Assembly: GCA_003252295.1 (NCBI GenBank)
Contig: QKEV01000003.1
Span: 64,701 to 128,700 of the forward strand
Reading direction: 5' to 3'
DNA from: a bacterium
GTDB taxonomy: Bacteria > Patescibacteriota > Minisyncoccia > Phycocordibacterales > UBA12088
Length of the DNA stretch: 64,000 nt
In this document: positions 347-7,732 of the stretch, one piece after another
How the letters are laid out: each line of letters starts with the position of its first letter
Numbering within the stretch: position 1 is the stretch's first letter
The notes under the pieces: generated by a model
Seen by the model: only the letters and a program-made list of their open reading frames with translations
Told to the model about the DNA's origin: nothing
The model's database searches: none
Translations under genes and position numbers: made by a program

Positions 347-1672
347 ATGTCAGAAAGTTCGACAAGTAACACCGTGTTTGAGGACATGATGCTTGTTCTC
401 TTTGGAATATTCCTTGTCGGGCAGATGTTTCAACGTGGCCCTGAGATACTACAGGAACGGTTCGGTATCTCTTTTGATGGGGAGAATCAGTACCTTGTTG
501 CAGGAGTGGCACTGAGTGCTGATACACCTCTTGGCACTGCGGTGAATGCACCGAATGGTGCGGTATTCTATAGTTCACCTGGAGAGGGAGATCCATCGGG
601 TACTTTTGCACCAGGAACATCGCTTACTATAGTTGGGGGTCCAGAGACAGTAAATGGAGAACGTTGGTGGCAGGTTGAAGATACGGCAACTGGAGAACAG
701 GGATGGGTTCGTGAGTCGAGTCTTGTTCGTGAAGGGGTTGGAGGTATTGGTCCAGCTACGAAAGTGGGAGCAAAAGCAAAAATACTTCTAGATACTACAG
801 CGTGGACAGAAGCGGGGGGTGCGGTAAAAGCAGCGTTACTGAAAAAAGGTGATGTAGGTGAACTAACTATAGGACCGAAAAAAAAGAACGAGACTCGTTG
901 GTGGTTCTTTGATAAAGATGGTTCTAGTGGTGATGGGTGGGTACCAGAGGCAGTACTTGTGCTTGCGAGTGATACGGGATGGGAGGAAGGTAGTAAGGTG
1001 CGTGGCAATGAAACGGTGAACTTGTTTGCACAAGCAGGAGGAGATGAGGTTACCGGTTTGTTGAGTAAAGGAGAAAAGGCGACGGTGCTTGGTGGACCTG
1101 TTGAAGTTGGAGGAGGGTTATGGTGGCTCATAAAGACACAAGAGGGTGAACAAGGTTGGGTAGAGGAGAGCGCACTTGAAGATGCAGGCATAACATCAAT
1201 TTTTAAAAAGATAGTCGTAGGTATTATGATTATTGGTGGTTTAGCGACACTCATATTGCTTGGAGGTATCGTGTATGTTGCCATTCGTACAAATCAAATA
1301 CGAGCACGAGAAGCTCAGAGGATACGATCTGCAATACCTGAAAAGATGGAAGAAGTAAAAAATGAGCGTTGGGCGAACATAGAGCGACAGGTGGCGTCAG
1401 AGAATCCAAATGATTGGCGACAAGGTATTTTGGAGGCCGATATTATGCTTGATGAGGTGGTGACAAGGATGGGCTACTATGGAGACACGCTTGGAGAAAA
1501 GTTAAAGCAGGTTGCACGGGGTGACATAGAGTACCTTGATGCACTCTGGGAAGCACATAAGGTTCGTAATCAGATAGCACATGAGGGGAGTGATTTTATA
1601 CTTACACAAAGAGAGGCTAAGCGAGTGGTTGGGTTGTACGGTACAGCTTTCAAGGAGCTCAGGGTTATTTAA
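347..1672 (+). CDS. Membrane-anchored protein: N-terminal TM, three bacterial SH3-like repeats (W..GWV motifs), TM helix, C-terminal cytoplasmic HEPN-like (Rx4H) alpha-helical domain
   Basis: Three repeated ~70-aa units with GERWWQV...GEQGWVRESSL / TRWWFF...GDGWVPEAVL / GGLWWLIK...GEQGWVEESAL. A hydrophobic helix IVVGIMIIGGLATLILLGGIVYVAI is followed by a positive-inside cytoplasmic tail. The C-terminal motif ...HKVRNQIAHEG fits HEPN Rx4-6H. Confidence 0.55.
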   Translation: MSESSTSNTVFEDMMLVLFGIFLVGQMFQRGPEILQERFGISFDGENQYLVAGVALSADTPLGTAVNAPNGAVFYSSPGEGDPSGTFAPGTSLTIVGGPETVNGERWWQVEDTATGEQGWVRESSLVREGVGGIGPATKVGAKAKILLDTTAWTEAGGAVKAALLKKGDVGELTIGPKKKNETRWWFFDKDGSSGDGWVPEAVLVLASDTGWEEGSKVRGNETVNLFAQAGGDEVTGLLSKGEKATVLGGPVEVGGGLWWLIKTQEGEQGWVEESALEDAGITSIFKKIVVGIMIIGGLATLILLGGIVYVAIRTNQIRAREAQRIRSAIPEKMEEVKNERWANIERQVASENPNDWRQGILEADIMLDEVVTRMGYYGDTLGEKLKQVARGDIEYLDALWEAHKVRNQIAHEGSDFILTQREAKRVVGLYGTAFKELRVI

Positions 1673-1700
1673 CCTCGCCTTAGCGGGGTGAAGTTTGAGT

Positions 1701-1747
1701 AAACAGAAAAGCAACCACTACTGGTTGCTTTTCTCTAGTTGTTGCGG
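1701..1747. repeat. 47-bp perfect direct repeat, copy 1 (contains terminator-like hairpin gcaacca-ctac-tggttgc followed by a T-run)
   Basis: aaacagaaaagcaaccactactggttgcttttctctagttgttgcgg is identical at 1701-1747 and 1931-1977. This copy lies just downstream of the stop codon at 1672. Confidence 0.9.
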
Positions 1748-1930
1748 TGAGGAGCAATGCTCCGCAAGATCTTGCCAGATATTTCTTGAAGGATGAAAAG
1801 AAATATCGACAAGGTGTACAGGTCTCGTAGAGACCCAGAATGTGACCAAATTTTCTTGAGTGAAGCGATTAGAAAATTGAAATGCCCTTGTGGTAAAATT
1901 CTGGCCCACACATACTGTGATTTATGCCAC

Positions 1931-1977
1931 AAACAGAAAAGCAACCACTACTGGTTGCTTTTCTCTAGTTGTTGCGG
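1931..1977. repeat. 47-bp perfect direct repeat, copy 2
   Basis: Identical to 1701-1747. The two copies bracket a 183-bp unique segment (1748-1930). Confidence 0.9.
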
Positions 1978-2136
1978 GGGCCAGAATTGCACTGGCGCCT
2001 GAAGGTTATGAGCCTTCCGAGGTACTACTCCTCCACCCCGCAATGGGTTACGTAGACTAACCTAACATATCTACACGATGCCTGCAAATGTATATAACTC
2101 GTAATACCTGTCTGTAATGAACGTCTGGTACAATAT

Positions 2137-3769: not shown

Positions 3770-3863
3770 ATTTGTAAGGGAGAGAGTAGCATGATTGTTA
3801 CAACTGTTCAACGTGATATTTATGGTAACTGACATATTTACTAAGAGTGATATACTACTATGT

Positions 3864-4049
3864 ATGGCACGAAGAAAGCTCGAAGAACGCAATATGCGAA
3901 CACTTTTTAAACTCGCTGGAGGAAAGAGTTTCGCGGTTACGATTCCTATCGATGTGGTCCGTAGCTGGGGTTGGCAAAACAATCAAAAGCTTAGACTCAA
4001 CATTGATGAGCAACACAAAAGGGTCATAGTAGAAGAATGGAAAGACTAA
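3864..4049 (+). CDS. AbrB/MazE/SpoVT-type swapped-hairpin DNA-binding protein (antitoxin-like), orphan
   Basis: MRTLFKLAGGKSFAVTIPIDVVRSWGWQNNQKLRLNIDEQHKRVIVEEWK resembles the AbrB-fold (KxGNSxxVTIPKExxExLGL...). No adjacent toxin ORF is evident. Confidence 0.5.
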   Translation: MARRKLEERNMRTLFKLAGGKSFAVTIPIDVVRSWGWQNNQKLRLNIDEQHKRVIVEEWKD

Positions 4050-4187: not shown

Positions 4188-4264
4188 GCGGTCGTAGCTC
4201 AACTGGTTAGAGCACCCGCCTGTCACGCGGGAGGTTGAGGGTTCAAGTCCCTTCGACCGCGCAA
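4188..4264 (+). tRNA. tRNA-Asp (anticodon GUC)
   Basis: GCGGTCG acceptor, GCTC/GAGC D-arm, anticodon stem CCCGC/GCGGG with loop CUGUCAC, T-arm GAGGG-TTCAAGT-CCCTT, discriminator G. Confidence 0.85.
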
Positions 4265-4269
4265 ATGAG

Positions 4270-4300
4270 ACAAAACGAGGTGAATGCCTCGTTTTGTTGT
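4270..4300 (+). terminator. Rho-independent terminator after tRNA-Asp
   Basis: acaaaacgagg-tgaatg-cctcgttttgt hairpin followed by a T-rich tract. Confidence 0.6.
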
Positions 4301-4372
4301 ATGTAGAGCCATTGTTCCAGTTCAAGTCTGAATTCTCGCATGTGAGTAGTTTGAACTGGTATACTAAAAAGT

Positions 4373-4714
4373 ATGGAGGATGAAAAATATTTAAAGTCGT
4401 CAGGTTTGTGGAGTTTTTCTACACTTTTCTTAGTCATAGTTTCAATGTTGTCCTTTATACCTGTTGTAGTGATAGTGTCCGACGCAGAAGGTATATCACA
4501 AAAACTGTTCCAGTACTCCGTGGTAATAGGGATTTGTGCAAGTGTGGTAATGTCTTTTGTCGAACTATATATGGAGGGAAAGTATAGAAAAAATGGAAAG
4601 TCGTCAGAAGTCCGTCTCTGGCGTAACATTGCTCTCTTCCATTGGTTGATTTTTGCTACTTTGTTATATGCTGTCTTTCATTTTGGTCCAGAAATATCCA
4701 AAGGATATATTTAA
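4373..4714 (+). CDS. Hypothetical integral membrane protein
   Basis: 113-aa ORF with three or four hydrophobic helices and no recognisable motif. Confidence 0.45.
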   Translation: MEDEKYLKSSGLWSFSTLFLVIVSMLSFIPVVVIVSDAEGISQKLFQYSVVIGICASVVMSFVELYMEGKYRKNGKSSEVRLWRNIALFHWLIFATLLYAVFHFGPEISKGYI

Positions 4715-4800
4715 ATTCTTAATGATGAAGAAAGCCGAGTTCGTTGTTTGATTTCCTCACCTTCGTTCCAATAGCGTCCCACAGCTCGCGCAAAATATCA

Positions 4801-4835
4801 AAACCGAAGCGAAAGCTTCGGTTTTGTGTAATTTT
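4801..4835 (+). terminator. Terminator-like GNRA hairpin (aaaccgaagc-gaaa-gcttcggttt) plus T-rich tail
   Basis: Perfect 10-bp stem with a GAAA tetraloop, followed by tgtgtaatttt. Plausible terminator for the 4373-4714 gene. Confidence 0.5.
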
Positions 4836-4839
4836 GCAG

Positions 4840-5035
4840 CGGTCGAAGAGACTTGAAAGCCGGAACAGCGGGTCCCCGCTCGTAGCGAAGCGGAGGGAAG
4901 GGGCTGCGAGGCGGGGTCGAGAGTGCTTAGGATTTGACGAGCATAGCGAGGAATAATCCTTAGCAACTCGTGACCAAGTCCCTTTGCAGATTAAAAGAAA
5001 TCCACCCAACTCACGGTGGGTTTCTTTGTTTTGTG
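4840..5035 (+). ncRNA. Candidate structured RNA (GC-rich island with multiple hairpins; family unidentified)
   Basis: Local GC is far above surrounding DNA (for example cggaacagcgggtccccgctcgtagcgaagcggagggaaggggctgcgaggcggggtcgagag). There is a hairpin agcgg-gtcc-ccgct and a long imperfect helix ggggtcgagagtgcttaggatt...aatccttagcaactcgtgacc. It ends in a terminator-like hairpin aaatccacc-caactcac-ggtgggttt plus ctttgttttg. The only ORF across it (minus 4719-5147) has no protein-like features. Confidence 0.4.
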
Positions 5036-5049
5036 GGTATACTGGATGT

Positions 5050-5592
5050 ATGAAAAAAAGCACACAAGGTACATTAGTGTTTTTTACTGGACTTATTCTG
5101 TATGGTGCGTACCTTGGCTTGCAACCTTCAAAGACCGTTATACTCAAAGGAATTGAGGGAGATGTTGCAAAGAAAGCTTACAAGTTGCATGTTCGTTCAA
5201 AAGGGCAAGTTAGAACAGGGGGTGATGTGGTAACAAAGACAGATCCACCATATGAGTTTACGTTACGTATTATGCCGGAAGACACCACTACTATGTTTGT
5301 TGAGCTGCAAGACGTACTCATTTATGGTTGTGGTGAGTACACACGCCTTCTTACATACGATGAACCTCTCATTTATACGGTAGATTACTTTGACTACAAG
5401 AAGCCAATGGCGTACTACTCTCTCAGAGGAAAGATGCAATGTCATGAAAATGCCATCATGGATATTTCATTTATATTACGCGATGCGGGAAAGAATGAGT
5501 TGAGTTCACACAATGAACGTGTCCTTCTTGAAGCGTATGAATATGTACCAAGTACGTTTCGATATTGGTGGGAAATGGCAAAAAGCTGGTGA
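5050..5592 (+). CDS. Hypothetical secreted/membrane-anchored protein
   Basis: ATG at 5050 gives MKKSTQGTLVFFTGLILYGAYLGLQPSK... (signal/anchor). The ORF track's longer N-terminal extension overlaps the structured GC-rich region. Confidence 0.45.
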   Translation: MKKSTQGTLVFFTGLILYGAYLGLQPSKTVILKGIEGDVAKKAYKLHVRSKGQVRTGGDVVTKTDPPYEFTLRIMPEDTTTMFVELQDVLIYGCGEYTRLLTYDEPLIYTVDYFDYKKPMAYYSLRGKMQCHENAIMDISFILRDAGKNELSSHNERVLLEAYEYVPSTFRYWWEMAKSW

Positions 5593-5639
5593 GTTCCCCA
5601 GTTTAATTTCTGTCAAACTTGTGTGTCTATCGATGGGAA

Positions 5640-7037
5640 TTACACCCTCTCTCCTTTATAGTACTTTCCAACATGCTTTCTCCACGTTTCTGGTGTGACA
5701 AATTCAACTAATGTATCTTTATCATTGAAAACAGGTTCAACAGGGAAGGAAGATCCTGTGTAGTCTTGTCCGTACGTAGTAGCTTTTAACTGTTCTGAAG
5801 TTTCCTGTACAATGCCATCCTCACTGCCGGCATCACATGCGGTGACCACAATTTGAGGATTTGGCTCAAAGTAGCTCTTCATACGTTGAAGACCTGGCCC
5901 CCTCAGGTCTTCAGTTGATACGGTTGTCCATGAGTTTTTCTTAGTAAAAAATTTCTTTAGTAATTTTAATCCCGTGTCGTATTTTTCAGGACCAAATTGG
6001 ACACTGTTTTTTGTTCCATGTCCCGAAAACATGGCAAATGATATTTTATTATGATCCCCGTAGTGTCTGTCACATTCAGTGAGTCTGCGTCCAATTCCAA
6101 AAGCCCTGTCAATTTCAAACATGCGGAGTAGGTACCTGCCATCAAGATTTTTGTAGAGCTTTTTTGTGTCTGCCCATGTGCTTGAAGTGAGGGCACCACT
6201 GTGGTCATCTAGTGCAGAGAATACAACACCGTATGGTTTTTCAGTGTTATCAAAATTATCATACTGGTCAATCAACACTGTCTCTGGATATCGACAAAAA
6301 TCTCGTATACCAAACTCTTTCTGCAACATTTCGACAGAACCTGGACGAAGATGCTCCATAGTGCGCATGGTTTCAATATTTTTCATCATATTCCATACCA
6401 GTGACGCTTCATGACCTTCACCATATGCGTTCATCTTCCACTTACTGAGCGTGTCTTCGAAATCAAGACCAGATCTTTCAACGATCAGTTGCAACAATTC
6501 ATTTGCCTTCTCGGTTTTCTCGTTGACTTCATAATTTTCCCTGTCTTCGATTGATGAGAGTATTGCAGAACCTAAAATACTTTCATCTGAAACATTAGGG
6601 ATACGAAGCAGACTTGTTTTTGTTGGAACCTTGTCTGGAGTGACCAAGTTTTGTTCTGCTAGAGTTTTATAGAAAATACCCATAGTTTTTTCGTACAGTG
6701 GGGAGAAGGTACGAAGCGAAGGAGGTATTTCCAACTGTGCTTCGTCTGTGTAGGTTGCATGTGTGAAGACGTTGTACAGTAGTTGCTCAGCACGTTTTCG
6801 AACCGGATCATCCTTATCTTCAGTGTTGGCAATACTAAAAAGTTTTTCAGTATGTTGTGCAAGCTCATTAGAAGCATGTTCAAGCTTTTCTTCATCTGCC
6901 TCTTCGGCAGTACTAAGGATGTCTGAAATAGAGCACTGGAGTTCAGTGATCAAGGTGAGTTTCTCTGAATCACTTTCATGCACGGGTTCAGTGCTTACAA
7001 ATGATTCATTACTTGTTACTGACTCTAATGGATCCAT
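5640..7037 (-). CDS. Hypothetical cytoplasmic protein with putative clan-CD (caspase-fold-like) cysteine peptidase His-Gly / Ala-Cys dyad in the C-terminal half
   Basis: ...ISFAMFSGHGTKN... (hydrophobic strand plus His-Gly) followed 61 residues later by ...PQIVVTACDAGS... (hydrophobic strand plus Cys), the arrangement typical of caspase/gingipain/CHAT-type peptidases. The N-terminal ~300 aa are acidic and alpha-helical. Confidence 0.35.
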   Translation of the reverse strand: MDPLESVTSNESFVSTEPVHESDSEKLTLITELQCSISDILSTAEEADEEKLEHASNELAQHTEKLFSIANTEDKDDPVRKRAEQLLYNVFTHATYTDEAQLEIPPSLRTFSPLYEKTMGIFYKTLAEQNLVTPDKVPTKTSLLRIPNVSDESILGSAILSSIEDRENYEVNEKTEKANELLQLIVERSGLDFEDTLSKWKMNAYGEGHEASLVWNMMKNIETMRTMEHLRPGSVEMLQKEFGIRDFCRYPETVLIDQYDNFDNTEKPYGVVFSALDDHSGALTSSTWADTKKLYKNLDGRYLLRMFEIDRAFGIGRRLTECDRHYGDHNKISFAMFSGHGTKNSVQFGPEKYDTGLKLLKKFFTKKNSWTTVSTEDLRGPGLQRMKSYFEPNPQIVVTACDAGSEDGIVQETSEQLKATTYGQDYTGSSFPVEPVFNDKDTLVEFVTPETWRKHVGKYYKGERV

Positions 7038-7174: not shown

Positions 7175-7732
7175 ATGCAGAAAATATCTAAGAAAGAAAG
7201 AATACTTCATGAAGCACTGAAACTGTTCGCGACCCAGGGTGTGGGAAGTACGTCGACCGCAGAGATAACAAAGAGCGCTGGTGTTGCTGAAGGAACGTTG
7301 TTTGTACACTTCAAGAATAAGCAGGCGCTTGTTGATGAGGTGTATCTGTACATTAAAAAACGAGAAGGTGAAGTGTTTGAAAAAGCTGTGACAGACGCAG
7401 CGACGGCGGAGGAGTTTGTTCGTACATTAGGTAAAACAGTAGTAAAACACTTTATTAAGAATTTCAACGAGCTCATTTTTTTGCAAAATGTTACCTTGCT
7501 AAAGTTAGTATCAAAGAGTGCACAAAAGGAAACAAATAAACATTTTGACATACTTCAGGAAAAGATGATGAGTTGGCAAAAGAAAGGGGATGTTAAACAG
7601 ATGGAGCCAGAAGTACTGCGTCGGTTAGTGTGGGCAATGTTCATTTCTCTCATACACTACTGTAAGACAAAAAGGATCGCTGTTACCAGTGAGCTGATAG
7701 ATCCGGTCTGGGATGCGGTTAGGGTTCGGTAG
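7175..7732 (+). CDS. TetR family transcriptional regulator
   Basis: N-terminal HTH ERILHEALKLFATQGVGSTSTAEITKSAGVAEGTLFVHFKNKQAL matches the TetR_N signature. Divergent from the 5640-7037 gene. Confidence 0.8.
   Translation: MQKISKKERILHEALKLFATQGVGSTSTAEITKSAGVAEGTLFVHFKNKQALVDEVYLYIKKREGEVFEKAVTDAATAEEFVRTLGKTVVKHFIKNFNELIFLQNVTLLKLVSKSAQKETNKHFDILQEKMMSWQKKGDVKQMEPEVLRRLVWAMFISLIHYCKTKRIAVTSELIDPVWDAVRVR

Follow-up and report, generated by a model that had tools for sequence, protein, structure and literature searches.

A tRNA-Asp gene (anticodon GTC; found by ARAGORN, 72.5 bits with the Rfam tRNA model) is located at 4188..4262 on the + strand of the window, the whole 64-kb stretch of DNA analyzed here, and the parts of the element and its surroundings mapped below are on the same strand. 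The 3′ segment of the gene, X (4242-4260, TTCAAGTCCCTTCGACCGC), should be noted, since its sequence is copied into the element downstream (inverted repeat I2). The present 3′ end of the tRNA is followed by HP-A (4270..4297), a terminator-like hairpin formed by a perfect 11-bp inverted repeat (I12), and by ORF113 (4373..4714), a membrane-protein reading frame of 113 codons in the ORF list, which is also called as a gene on the source contig and has the promoter arrangement TATACT-N7-ATG. Farther downstream lies the conserved element proper (4839-4986), bracketed by the hairpins T1 (4799..4826, 12 bp with a GAAA loop) and T2 (4994-5027, 13 bp, with a U-rich tract reaching to 5035). Both hairpins are among the seven intrinsic-terminator-like sites that a terminator scan gave in 4200-5700, against 1.2 expected; T1 is also defined by alignments A3 and A5, and T2 is the probable terminator of the element. 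A TATACT box resembling a −10 element (5038..5043, read from the sequence) stands 6 nt before the ATG at 5050 of a gene for a secreted protein of 180 aa.

The GC content of the element is 0.63, compared with 0.43, and the profile peaks at 4850-4949 (0.63; the mean of the 64-kb window is 0.434). The + strand fold of 4780-5040 has an energy of −111.3 kcal/mol (z = −6.8), with none of 200 shuffled sequences as good, and the − strand fold one of −94.8 kcal/mol (z = −6.2). The GC profile and the shuffle-tested folding of both strands bear out the first-pass annotation, which had described a GC-rich, strongly structured intergenic region at this place. Its GAAA-tetraloop hairpin (4801-4824) and its terminal hairpin with a U-tract (5010-5035) correspond to T1 and T2, respectively, and both are terminator-like in the scan.

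The region 4740-4838, between ORF113 and the element, consists of a displaced ancestral tRNA-Asp end, its trailer, and the old terminator T1, judging from the alignment with the related locus L139. A remnant of the tRNA end (CGCG) and the trailer (CAAAATATC) are recognizable at 4786..4798 by identity to L139 (MAFFT alignment A5). Over the tRNA-Asp end, trailer, hairpin, and spacer, 41 of 50 positions are identical between the window and L139, and none of 2000 shuffles is as good. Further, more decayed traces of the T-loop and T-stem may extend back to around 4766. In relatives, tRNA-Asp and the element are separated by a terminator-like hairpin; T1 is its orthologue, and it now doubles as the end of the ORF113 transcription unit. 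HP-A, by contrast, shows no homology to the L139 terminator behind tRNA-Asp and is part of an inserted cassette. Since the element directly follows tRNA-Asp in L139, L092, and L090, ORF113 is an insertion that parts tRNA-Asp from its original trailer, its terminator, and the element. The element first stood directly behind tRNA-Asp, and a cassette of ~520 bp comprising a replacement tRNA 3′ end, HP-A, and ORF113 later entered at the tRNA 3′ end, so that the unit is now 580 nt away. The distance of 585 nt between the window unit and tRNA-Asp, which exceeds the ≤100 nt after a tRNA and hairpin that defines the family described below, is explained by this insertion, since the unit still directly adjoins the old tRNA end with its trailer and hairpin. 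Behind tRNA-Met (1971-2042) there is another insertion, unrelated to the first, with a perfect 47-nt duplication.

The first-pass annotation had also considered the element as a possible leader of the downstream secreted protein. In favor of a leader, riboswitch, or attenuator of the 180-aa protein, the fold is aptamer-like and has terminator T2 behind it, 22 nt ahead of the ATG. However, the element is absent upstream of the only homologs of the protein (53-61% identity), where just 3-53 nt separate the start from the gene before it, and family members precede unrelated genes or tRNAs. The TATACT box, moreover, sits after T2, outside the element, and is a putative independent promoter of the leaderless type; a TATACT-N3..7-ATG arrangement also occurs at 3851 and 4360 (repeat D3). 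A leader function is accordingly not upheld, and we regard it as extremely improbable.

A family of structured units behind tRNA genes

The Rfam search recommended by the first-pass annotation gave nothing on the element at gathering thresholds in the 64-kb window, and only chance-level matches (11.7-17.1 bits) in 4650-5100 at E ≤ 10. The units at 16 related loci gave nothing either, at gathering and permissive thresholds. A covariance model, R1, was built from a seed of 16 metagenomic units from which the window sequence was left out. R1 matches the window at 4848-4981 with 58.2 bits (E = 1.2e-12 over 653 kb) and nowhere else within the 64 kb, and it retrieves 51 copies in 34 loci; about 100 of the 120 pattern matches in metagenomes were chance and were dropped after filtering and model scoring. 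Thirty-six of the 51 units lie ≤100 nt after a same-strand tRNA gene, and the tRNAs concerned are of nine types (Asp, Leu, Met, Pro, Thr, Trp, Arg, Ile, and Val). Six other units are the second or third members of tandem arrays, which occur in L090, L139, L174, and L011, and six are at locus edges. The orientation is tRNA-sense in all matches. A genome carries multiple copies, one behind each of several tRNAs, and most copies are trailed by a hairpin of their own, after which unrelated genes or tRNAs follow. It is thus practically certain that 4839-4986 belongs to a family of structured elements from Patescibacteria (CPR) that is, as far as can be seen, uncatalogued, and whose members come directly after a tRNA gene and its terminator-like hairpin, in the orientation of the tRNA. 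A literature search found no description of such an element in CPR.

There is equally little doubt that the unit folds into a three-way junction of helices P1, P2, and P3 with a few invariant unpaired purines. In the alignment of the 51 units, which is fitted to the model so that counts are somewhat inflated, 90.7% of cells are paired, compared with 69% after shuffling and 27-46% with slid partners. In the same model-fitted alignment, cells with double changes number 238 versus 72 in shuffles, and compensatory changes are found in 19 of 23 pairs; in P2a, for example, the pair types are CG (27), GC (16), and AU (3). As to the strand, one G.U pair is conserved (28 of 41), and G.U is more frequent than A.C (64 versus 26), in line with the uniform tRNA-sense orientation. 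G8, A10, and A17 are unpaired and invariant in 51/51 units. The unpaired bases conserved in the family are a junction GAA, an internal loop GGA opposite GA, a junction G, and a bulged A in P3, whereas P2 and P3 are otherwise highly variable and conserved nucleotides are few.

In the window, the R1 alignment places the three-way-junction core at 4848..4981, supported by covariation and the conserved unpaired bases. P1 is formed by 4848-4854 and 4976-4981, and its 5′ strand is followed by the junction GAA (4855-4857). P2a (4859-4861 paired with 4910-4912) leads to the internal loop GGA (4862-4864) opposite GA (4908-4909) and to a variable P2 expansion (4865-4907). P3 occupies 4915-4975, with a G.U pair at 4919/4971 and the bulged A at 4966. 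All the family-typical unpaired bases are present, namely G4855, A4856, A4857, G4862, G4863, A4864, G4908, A4909, G4914, and A4966. The long imperfect helix pointed out in the first-pass annotation, ggggtcgagagtgcttaggatt / aatccttagcaactcgtgacc, turns out to be P3 of the family consensus, and its agcgg-gtcc-ccgct hairpin is located within the variable P2 expansion. Conservation of structure in relatives, which had been set as the check, is provided by the covariation over 51 units and the R1 match to the window. The conserved fold, combined with the lack of an Rfam match, agrees with the proposal of a structured non-coding RNA outside the catalogued families.

A GC-rich, structured region in an AT-rich genome could also encode a protein or a divergent housekeeping RNA (6S, SRP, RNase P, or tmRNA), and the latter had been suggested at first. 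Against this, Rfam and ARAGORN are blank for the element in the window and for 10 loci with canonical units, and several copies per genome stand behind several tRNAs, whereas RNase P, SRP, and 6S RNAs are single-copy. L165, which carries a family copy, has a separate partial match to RNase P class A elsewhere in the locus (truncated and below threshold). The dismissal of tmRNA, RNase P, and SRP RNA by eye in the first-pass annotation thus stands. ARAGORN detects no tmRNA in the window, no tag ORF is present, and the acceptor-like strand is of the Asp type without a partner and lacks the Ala identity pair. The open reading frames across the region, of which the one noted at first had been judged to be without protein-like features, have no Pfam support, and the variation among units is base-pair covariation and not codon-like. 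A housekeeping or coding identity therefore has a negligible probability.

Other candidates were rejected by their features. T-box, K-turn, retron, IS110 bridge RNA, TnpB/IscB omega RNA, and split or intron-containing tRNA lack the required features or partner genes. The apical GA...GAA motif merely resembles the stem II extension of a hammerhead, and a primer-binding site of the retroviral type does not fit, because the tRNA-complementary segment of the element complements the trailer of the gene and not CCA.

The closing helix and the role of the unit

The nearby tRNA genes had been noticed as context at first, and the tRNA is indeed key to the element; what was missed is the segment X′ (4839..4857, GCGGTCGAAGAGACTTGAA), which is the reverse complement of the tRNA-Asp 3′ end at 18 of 19 positions of 4242-4260 (blastn E = 0.015 within the window). 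The trailing of many tRNA genes by the family, with each copy fitted to its own tRNA, had likewise escaped notice. X′ covers the complement of the acceptor 3′ strand, the T-stem 3′ strand, and the T-loop (inverted repeat I2), and the 5′ strand of the closing helix P1 (4844-4855) lies inside it. On the 3′ side, P1 is formed by a stretch that repeats part of the tRNA-Asp T-loop and T-stem 3′ strand in direct orientation (4975..4986, CAAGTCCCTT then TG), judging from direct repeat D8 and the minimum-free-energy pairing. The acceptor 3′ strand is missing or degenerate at this end (TGCAGAT after CAAGTCCCTT), and a full direct copy of the tRNA 3′ end with acceptor strand and discriminator is absent from the window unit. 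The same 3′ truncation is found in L092 and in unit 1 of L090.

Across the family, it is virtually beyond doubt that P1, often with a 7-bp extension, is made from three parts of the tRNA upstream of the same unit, namely the T-loop, the T-stem 3′ strand, and the acceptor 3′ strand, which are present once as reverse complement (X′) and once as direct copy (X). When the 12 nt at the start of a unit are compared with the reverse complement of positions 54-65 of its own tRNA, the agreement is 11.0/12, compared with 8.8/12 for other tRNAs, and none of 10,000 permutations is as good. Even rare TGC T-loops are mirrored as GCA in the unit. X′ is present in 38 family members, each fitting its own tRNA. 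Since the ends are built from X′ and X, the unit terminates in a tRNA-like minihelix of acceptor and T arm.

Taken by analogy, these ends suggest that the element is most likely a tRNA-operon trailer RNA that is matured via its tRNA-like ends. The unit would be transcribed as the trailer of the tRNA transcription unit; for the window copy, polymerase could read past T1 or start at a weak −10-like sequence (TGTAAT/TAATTT) at 4827-4834. The RNA would fold into the three-way junction and be excised and stabilized through ends mimicking a tRNA acceptor/T arm, the candidate enzymes acting on the minihelix being RNase P, the CCA-adding enzyme, and either RNase Z or 3′ exonucleases. Function would then reside in the conserved junction and loops, probably as a protein-binding platform, and recombination between the repeated tRNA 3′ ends may both spread and remove units. 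The terminator T2 behind the window copy supports a trailer RNA. Several observations stand against it, however. The window unit, L092, and unit 1 of L090 form only a 12-bp P1 with an A.C mismatch, which makes a poor minihelix, and the units have no T-loop or elbow. A canonical terminator usually lies between tRNA and unit, and no conserved promoter was found. In addition, a processed small RNA leaves it unexplained why the local tRNA, and not just any tRNA, is copied. We give this explanation as a whole, i.e., the family identity together with a trailer resembling E. coli RtT, an even chance of being right, and the RtT-like mode of working in particular a chance slightly short of even.

The copying from the local tRNA should be considered from another side. 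X′ could act in cis as an antisense switch on its own tRNA, pairing either with the upstream tRNA 3′ half (a hairpin of 33-40 bp) or with the unit's own X, which closes P1. Pairing with the tRNA would unfold it or expose it to RNase III, and the three-way junction would be the sensor of a ligand or protein that chooses the pairing, making each unit a regulatory module for one tRNA. This is the sole model that explains why both flanks must fit the local tRNA. The tRNA 3′ half, the hairpin, and X′ fold together at −48 to −77 kcal/mol, and the junction bases complementary to tRNA 54-55, which are unpaired in the unit, track the tRNA (GAA changes to GCA with TGC T-loops). The 7-nt acceptor complement of X′ is retained in the window, L092, and L090 though the unit offers no partner for it, and in the window the displaced tRNA end near X′ decayed meanwhile. 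A P1 switching helix that closes a three-way junction is, furthermore, typical of riboswitch architecture. On the other side, the tRNA is made and folded ~100 nt before X′ emerges, with a terminator between, and the window tRNA is 580 nt off in a separate transcription unit. X′ fits the unit's own X better than the X of the tRNA in L129 and L146, and its acceptor part is lost in L195, L044, and L131. A pocket for a small molecule is also unlikely, given how few nucleotides are conserved and how strongly P2 and P3 vary. We consider such a switch improbable.

The distribution of the units bears on a further explanation. Units are patchy: they follow only 36 of 94 tRNAs in matched loci and one of six in the window, and they are carried by nine of 28 CPR-labelled genome loci; this fits a dispensable or selfish element equally well as a functional one. 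The unit could be a selfish or recombination-generated repeat targeting tRNAs, that is, a short insertion, not autonomous, that enters tRNA genes at the 3′ end or T-loop and duplicates the tRNA 3′ segment as integrative elements do. Its fold would then help it to propagate, as single-stranded DNA or as RNA, and would not serve the host. The direct repeats X...X flanking the hairpin, X′, and core are a hallmark of insertions at tRNA 3′ ends, and the tandem arrays fit this picture, as does a unit behind tRNA-Met in L139 where the window has none. Within a genome, the units have P2 sequences in common that are specific to the lineage, and the window unit resembles a recombinant between units b and a of L139. 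The ORF113 cassette with a replacement tRNA 3′ end entered at this very site in the window, the unrelated insertion with the 47-nt duplication lies behind tRNA-Met, and the same architecture with unrelated cores occurs in Clostridia and E. coli.

The selfish repeat nevertheless faces several difficulties. No integrase, transposase, or reverse transcriptase adjoins any unit examined, and no viral contig carries a unit: a phage DNA search gave no match, a viral-contig scan with a 20-mer of the core gave 0 matches, and the 54 viral matches of the family 5′ motif are chance, none being significant by R1. The terminal repeats vary from copy to copy, which no transposase known to us tolerates, and ends derived from one tRNA could not restore another. 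The empty-site homology between the terminator of tRNA-Met in the window and the terminator after the L139 unit is not significant (127 of 1000 shuffles are as good). Orthologous tRNA-Asp units, on the other hand, are kept in L092 (76% identity over 201 nt, E = 4e-33), L090, and the syntenic L139, across genomes whose proteins are only 45-75% identical, and such persistence argues for long vertical retention under constraint. We therefore regard the selfish repeat as unlikely.

A related reading, tentative and rather doubtful in our estimate, is that the units are a new class of tRNA-specific module that writes inverted and direct copies of the host-tRNA 3′ half into its own ends, either as a mobile element with templated termini or as a cis-regulatory switch for each tRNA. 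If it is true, the mobile form would have termini derived from its target, which to our knowledge have not been found in any transposon or integrative element, and in the antisense form a three-way-junction sensor would decide on invasion of the tRNA; the principle, hitherto unrecognized, would then extend to RtT of E. coli and to the repeats behind tRNA-Leu in Clostridia.

The units mark tRNA 3′ ends as recombination hotspots and offer a comparative handle on how genomes copy a tRNA 3′ half, in both orientations, beside the gene. In the annotation of CPR genomes, recognizing them matters because such GC-rich islands would otherwise be mistaken for ORFs or tRNA pseudogenes.

Comparison with known systems

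The units resemble MITEs and REP-like repeats in being short, multi-copy, hairpin-rich, intergenic, and patchy, with terminal inverted repeats. They differ in that their ends vary, being copied from each target tRNA, in their strict location and orientation relative to tRNA genes, and in a core conserved across phylum-level distances. With att-site duplications they share a direct repeat from the T-loop to the tRNA 3′ end that flanks the inserted DNA and a proximal copy that keeps the tRNA intact, a pattern that the ORF113 cassette also fits. The unit, however, is only 150-250 bp, carries the inverted copy X′ in addition, and has a covariation-supported fold conserved across distant genomes; no integrase or recombinase domain is found in the ORFs neighboring the element.

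An acceptor/T-arm mimic on a non-tRNA RNA is also known from the tRNA-like domain of tmRNA, bacterial YrlA Y RNAs, plant-mitochondrial t-elements, and MALAT1 mascRNA. In these systems, tRNA enzymes recognize the mimic (see PMC3929946 and PMC4201824 for some of them). The modules keep a T-loop or elbow, in a sequence fixed within the family, whereas in the present family the three-way junction replaces the T-loop and the helix is copied from the neighboring tRNA. The element has neither the Ala identity pair nor a tag ORF, and no rsr/Ro gene is located nearby.

The closest parallel is RtT (the rttR repeats of E. coli tyrT-tyrV, RF00391), which has been known since the late 1970s and for which we know of no accepted function. 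The RtT core has no detectable homology to the window family; RF00391 gives nothing in 4650-5100 at E ≤ 10 nor in the window at the gathering threshold, though the E. coli control scores 133-137 bits, and R1 has no match at E ≤ 10 when run on the E. coli tyrT locus. In enterobacteria, RtT goes with a single tRNA (Tyr), while the window family stands behind at least nine tRNA species in Patescibacteria, and RtT has no terminator hairpin between tRNA and unit and overlaps a small ORF (tpr). The likeness is one of architecture only. RtT repeats are likewise on the same strand, directly downstream of a tRNA, and tandem, with a GC-rich branched interior and an obscure function. Their outer helix is copied from the adjacent tRNA, as a reverse complement of the T-stem 3′/acceptor sequence (GGGGAAGGAU) and a direct copy of the 3′ end (AUCCUUCCCC...CACCACCA). 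A third type, with the same architecture and an unrelated core, is found behind tRNA-Leu in Clostridia. With a closing helix copied from the local tRNA in all three types, RtT-like tRNA-trailing RNAs are not just an enterobacterial oddity, and the three together provide a comparative handle on the role of the trailer as a processing decoy, a protein platform, or a regulator of the tRNA.

Fold of the element and its match to tRNA-Asp

The intergenic stretch that the first-pass annotation had singled out as GC-rich and highly structured is both. The GC content reaches 0.63 within 4850–4949, compared with a window average of 0.434, and the folding energies of 4780–5040 are −111.3 kcal/mol (z = −6.8) on the plus strand and −94.8 kcal/mol (z = −6.2) on the minus strand, values that no shuffled sequence equals. 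The GC-rich core is flanked by two hairpins with intrinsic-terminator-like scores on both strands, the GAAA-loop hairpin T1 (4799–4826) on one side and T2 (4994–5027), followed by a U-rich tract, on the other. ORFs crossing the region have no Pfam support, in agreement with the earlier remark that the crossing ORF has no protein-like features. An Rfam 15 search, the check proposed in that annotation, gave six tRNAs and nothing more in the whole window at gathering thresholds, and only noise of 11.7–17.1 bits in 4650–5100 at E ≤ 10. Since neither Rfam nor ARAGORN (searched for tmRNA) gave a match, the suggestion of a divergent housekeeping RNA is not borne out.

Self-comparison of the window showed that 4839–4857 (GCGGTCGAAGAGACTTGAA) is the reverse complement, at 18 of 19 positions, of the tRNA-Asp 3′ end at 4242–4260 (blastn E = 0.015 within the window), a segment spanning the T-loop and the 3′ strands of the T-stem and the acceptor stem. 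At 4975–4984 there is also a short direct copy, CAAGTCCCTT, which base-pairs with the inverted one to close the GC-rich core.

A covariation-supported family

A motif scan for the tRNA-Asp 3′ end in one genome per GTDB species gave 88 loci, and comparison of the window element with these by blastn and nhmmer revealed clear homologs. Locus L092, from a Paceibacterota MAG, is 76% identical over 201 nt (E = 4e-33), and L090 carries the homolog in three tandem copies. In both, tRNA-Met and tRNA-Asp directly precede the element on its own strand, the order being tRNA-Asp with its 3′ segment X, terminator-like hairpin, X′ (the reverse complement of X), GC-rich core and copy of X. Eight further CPR-labelled loci have weaker copies. 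In L092, a 50-nt segment (half hairpin and X′) is also perfectly repeated past the unit without the core (7330–7385, minus strand), pointing either to a recent duplication or to a second unit that has been deleted.

The motif GRGACTTGAANGNCGGA picked out 120 loci in metagenomes, about 20 with true units and most being chance matches. Sixteen metagenomic units were aligned with the window sequence left out, and RNAalifold gave a three-way junction, from which the covariance model R1 was built. R1 matches the window at 4848–4981 (58.2 bits, E = 1.2e-12 over 653 kb) and nowhere else in it. Among all loci compared, R1 detects 51 units in 34 loci at E ≤ 1e-4. The occurrence is patchy. All nine GTDB loci with matches are CPR-labelled (Saccharibacteria, Paceibacterota, Parcubacteria, Patescibacteria), and about 59 non-CPR loci with the same tRNA motif have none.

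In the window copy, the closing helix P1 pairs 4844–4855 with 4975–4986, with one A·C mismatch. The junction GAA (4855–4857) leads to P2a (4859–4861 with 4910–4912) and to an internal loop in which GGA (4862–4864) lies opposite GA (4908–4909). The segment at 4865–4907 is a lineage-specific expansion of P2, with AGCGAAGCGGAG common to the window, L092 and L139b. P3 (4915–4975) corresponds to the long imperfect helix seen earlier and is followed by T2. The acceptor 3′ strand is absent from the window copy, as it is from L092 and L090 unit 1.

The fold is conserved across the family. In the model-derived alignment, which is fitted to R1 itself, 90.7% of the cells are paired, compared with 69% on shuffling and 27–46% for slid partners; both sides have changed in 238 cells (72 in shuffles), and compensatory changes occur in 19 of 23 pairs. 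The middle pair of P2a, for example, is CG in 27 units, GC in 16 and AU in 3. Near-invariant unpaired bases are found in the junction (G-A-A, and a further G), in the internal loop (GGAG opposite (C)GA) and as a bulged A in P3. One G·U pair is conserved and G·U exceeds A·C by 64 to 26, which favors the tRNA-sense strand.

Rfam at permissive thresholds placed no family on the units in 16 loci with tRNA-trailing units (10 of the R1 family and 6 of the Clostridial type described below); L165, a unit carrier, has a truncated, below-threshold partial match to RNase P class A elsewhere in the locus. No account of the CPR family turned up in the literature searches. The window element belongs to an apparently undescribed, covariation-supported family of tRNA-linked RNAs. 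The earlier proposal of a novel structured RNA is thus upheld by the lack of an Rfam match and by the covariation-supported fold, while its companion proposals, a housekeeping RNA and a leader for the downstream secreted-protein gene, are not. Only three homologs of the 180-aa protein that starts at 5050 occur in a collection of 5.8 billion proteins (53–61% identity), and these begin 3–53 nt past the preceding gene on their own contigs, leaving no room for the element. In addition, a TATACT box lies 6 nt upstream of the ATG, 3′ of T2, and the genes at 3864 and 4373 are also preceded by a TATACT-N-ATG arrangement, which argues that the 180-aa gene is probably driven by its own leaderless-type promoter. 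The element is neither the leader of this gene nor one of the housekeeping RNAs.

Three window genes begin 3–7 nt past a TATACT box (3851–3866, 4360–4375 and 5038–5052), two of the three boxes being TGnTATACT. This suggests that the genome commonly uses leaderless mRNAs.

Units, their own tRNAs and possible roles

The placement of the units behind tRNAs is strand-specific. Thirty-six of the 51 lie within 100 nt past a tRNA on the same strand (14 behind Asp, 8 behind Leu, 6 behind Met, 2 each behind Pro and Thr, and 1 each behind Trp, Arg, Ile and Val). Of the rest, 6 take the second or third place in a tandem array, 6 sit at the edge of their locus and 3, the window copy among them, are more than 400 nt from the tRNA. 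Nearly every tRNA is trailed by a unit in L177 1–2400 (Pro, Pro, Arg, Leu) and L095 1500–4450 (Asp, Met, Met). Units of the same genome have common lineage-specific P2 hairpins (e.g. UUUUGUCAGUAGACAAAA), suggesting concerted evolution or recent spread within genomes.

The closing helix derives from the local tRNA. The first 12 nt of the unit are the reverse complement of positions 54–65 of its own tRNA, with a mean match of 11.0/12 compared with 8.8/12 for other tRNAs (0 of 10,000 permutations as good). This holds for every T-loop type observed: TTCGAAT, TTCAAAT, TTCAATT and the unusual TGCAAGT of some tRNA-Met are answered by ATTCGAA, ATTTGAA, AATTGAA and ACTTGCA, respectively. Many units also have the complement of the acceptor 3′ strand, either adjoining or about 27 nt upstream, with an extra small hairpin (loop CUGC) in between in the latter case. 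Many finish in a perfect copy of the 3′ strands of T-stem and acceptor plus the discriminator, in some cases with CCA as well. Since the ends copy the unit's own tRNA, the unit is a three-way-junction domain with a copy of that tRNA's acceptor/T minihelix as its cap.

The T-loop TGCAAnT, with G at position 55, occurs in tRNA-Met genes of several of these Patescibacteria, at L095 3404–3478 and 4369–4440, L130 950–1022, L163 3635–3709, L064 1578–1652 and window 1971–2042. To our knowledge, this position is otherwise universally U (pseudouridine).

A cis antisense switch acting on the tRNA is the sole reading that explains why a unit has to match its local tRNA, and the tRNA-hairpin-X′ fold comprises 33–40 bp at −48 to −77 kcal/mol. 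However, folding kinetics, the intervening terminator and the decayed X′ of some units make such a switch improbable. Our preferred reading, held tentatively, is that the unit is, by analogy with RtT, a trailer RNA transcribed together with its tRNA. The tRNA-end machinery would release and stabilize it on account of its ends, which mimic an acceptor/T minihelix, and the junction and loops would make up the functional surface. A terminator follows the unit.

The position of the window copy should be noted. L139, the closest syntenic relative, has an AbrB-like gene, tRNA-Asp and genes like those at 8.6–15.4 kb of the window (48–85% protein identity), and its units come directly after tRNA-Asp. 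Window 4786–4836 matches the L139 tRNA-Asp end, trailer, hairpin and spacer at 41/50 (0 of 2000 shuffles equal), the ancestral tRNA end, trailer and terminator persisting at 4786–4826. The present tRNA-Asp is instead trailed by a different hairpin, HP-A (4270–4297), and then by the 113-codon ORF113. The simplest reading is that insertion of a cassette of about 520 bp at the 3′ end of the tRNA supplied a replacement for that end, together with HP-A and ORF113, and pushed away the old tRNA end, T1 and the unit. The cassette-like stretch (4263–4785) carries ORF113 (4373–4714) with its own TATACT promoter, and no integrase was found near it.

Such evident insertional activity at tRNA 3′ ends within the window, together with att-like direct repeats, tandem arrays and patchiness, would fit the units being selfish tRNA-targeting insertions or recombination products. 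We consider this less likely than the trailer RNA, as no recombinase was found and the ends differ copy by copy. No current model accounts for the origin of both the inverted and the direct copies of the tRNA 3′ half.

Comparison with other tRNA-trailing repeats

In Clostridia (Anaerovoracaceae and relatives), a third type of unit, about 170 nt long, is found behind tRNA-Leu(GAG), either singly or as two or three in tandem (minus strand: L020 1700–2250 and L023 1300–1510; L065 4200–4400; L047 2305–2500; L043). These units open with GGGACTTGAA, in which T-loop and T-stem appear as their reverse complement, and finish with AAGTCCCTTCGACCGCACCA, the tRNA 3′ end including CCA, whereas their core is unlike that of the CPR family and matches no Rfam family. 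Right after the tRNA-Leu array of L020 lies a Gut-1 RNA (RF01706, 62.4 bits, over the gathering score; 1598–1672, minus strand), with a weaker copy on the opposite strand (1488–1552).

The window itself has a second tRNA 3′-end duplication downstream of tRNA-Met 1971–2042 (1678–1990, minus strand). A 47-nt segment that takes in the end of the tRNA with its trailer and terminator occurs in two identical copies 230 nt apart, with an inverted T-arm/acceptor copy in between (1897–1912 versus 1973–1988, 88%). The architecture is like that of the CPR unit, but the core is AT-rich and unrelated, without an R1 match.

The primary references for RtT are Egan and Landy (1978) and Bosl and Kersten (1991). 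In the E. coli tyrT–tyrV locus (K-12, NC_000913.3 1286500–1287800), we found four RtT repeats (RF00391, 133–137 bits). The interior of the RtT repeat has more tRNA-Tyr-like pieces (CTTCGACCAAGGTTCGA versus tRNA GACTTCGAAGGTTCGAA), and the RtT 17-mer AGCGACGAATAATCCTT agrees with window 4945–4961 (AGCGAGGAATAATCCTT) at 16/17 positions, an agreement that may be due to chance or to the remains of nested helices derived from a tRNA. The rtT RNA is described as a product of one tyrT operon repeat unit, and its mode of action is called still unknown (PMC3318445; bioRxiv 10.1101/2024.07.17.603846). RF00391 has no match in window 4650–5100, nor R1 in the E. coli locus, both at E ≤ 10, and the two cores have no detectable relationship. 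The RtT consensus in Rfam nevertheless has an outer helix, GGGGAAGGAU / AUCCUUCCCC, then CACCACCA, in which the reverse complement of the tRNA-Tyr T-stem 3′/acceptor segment is paired with its direct copy. RtT and the CPR family are thus alike in architecture and in position behind the tRNA, and we place the CPR family with RtT instead of treating it as a category of its own.
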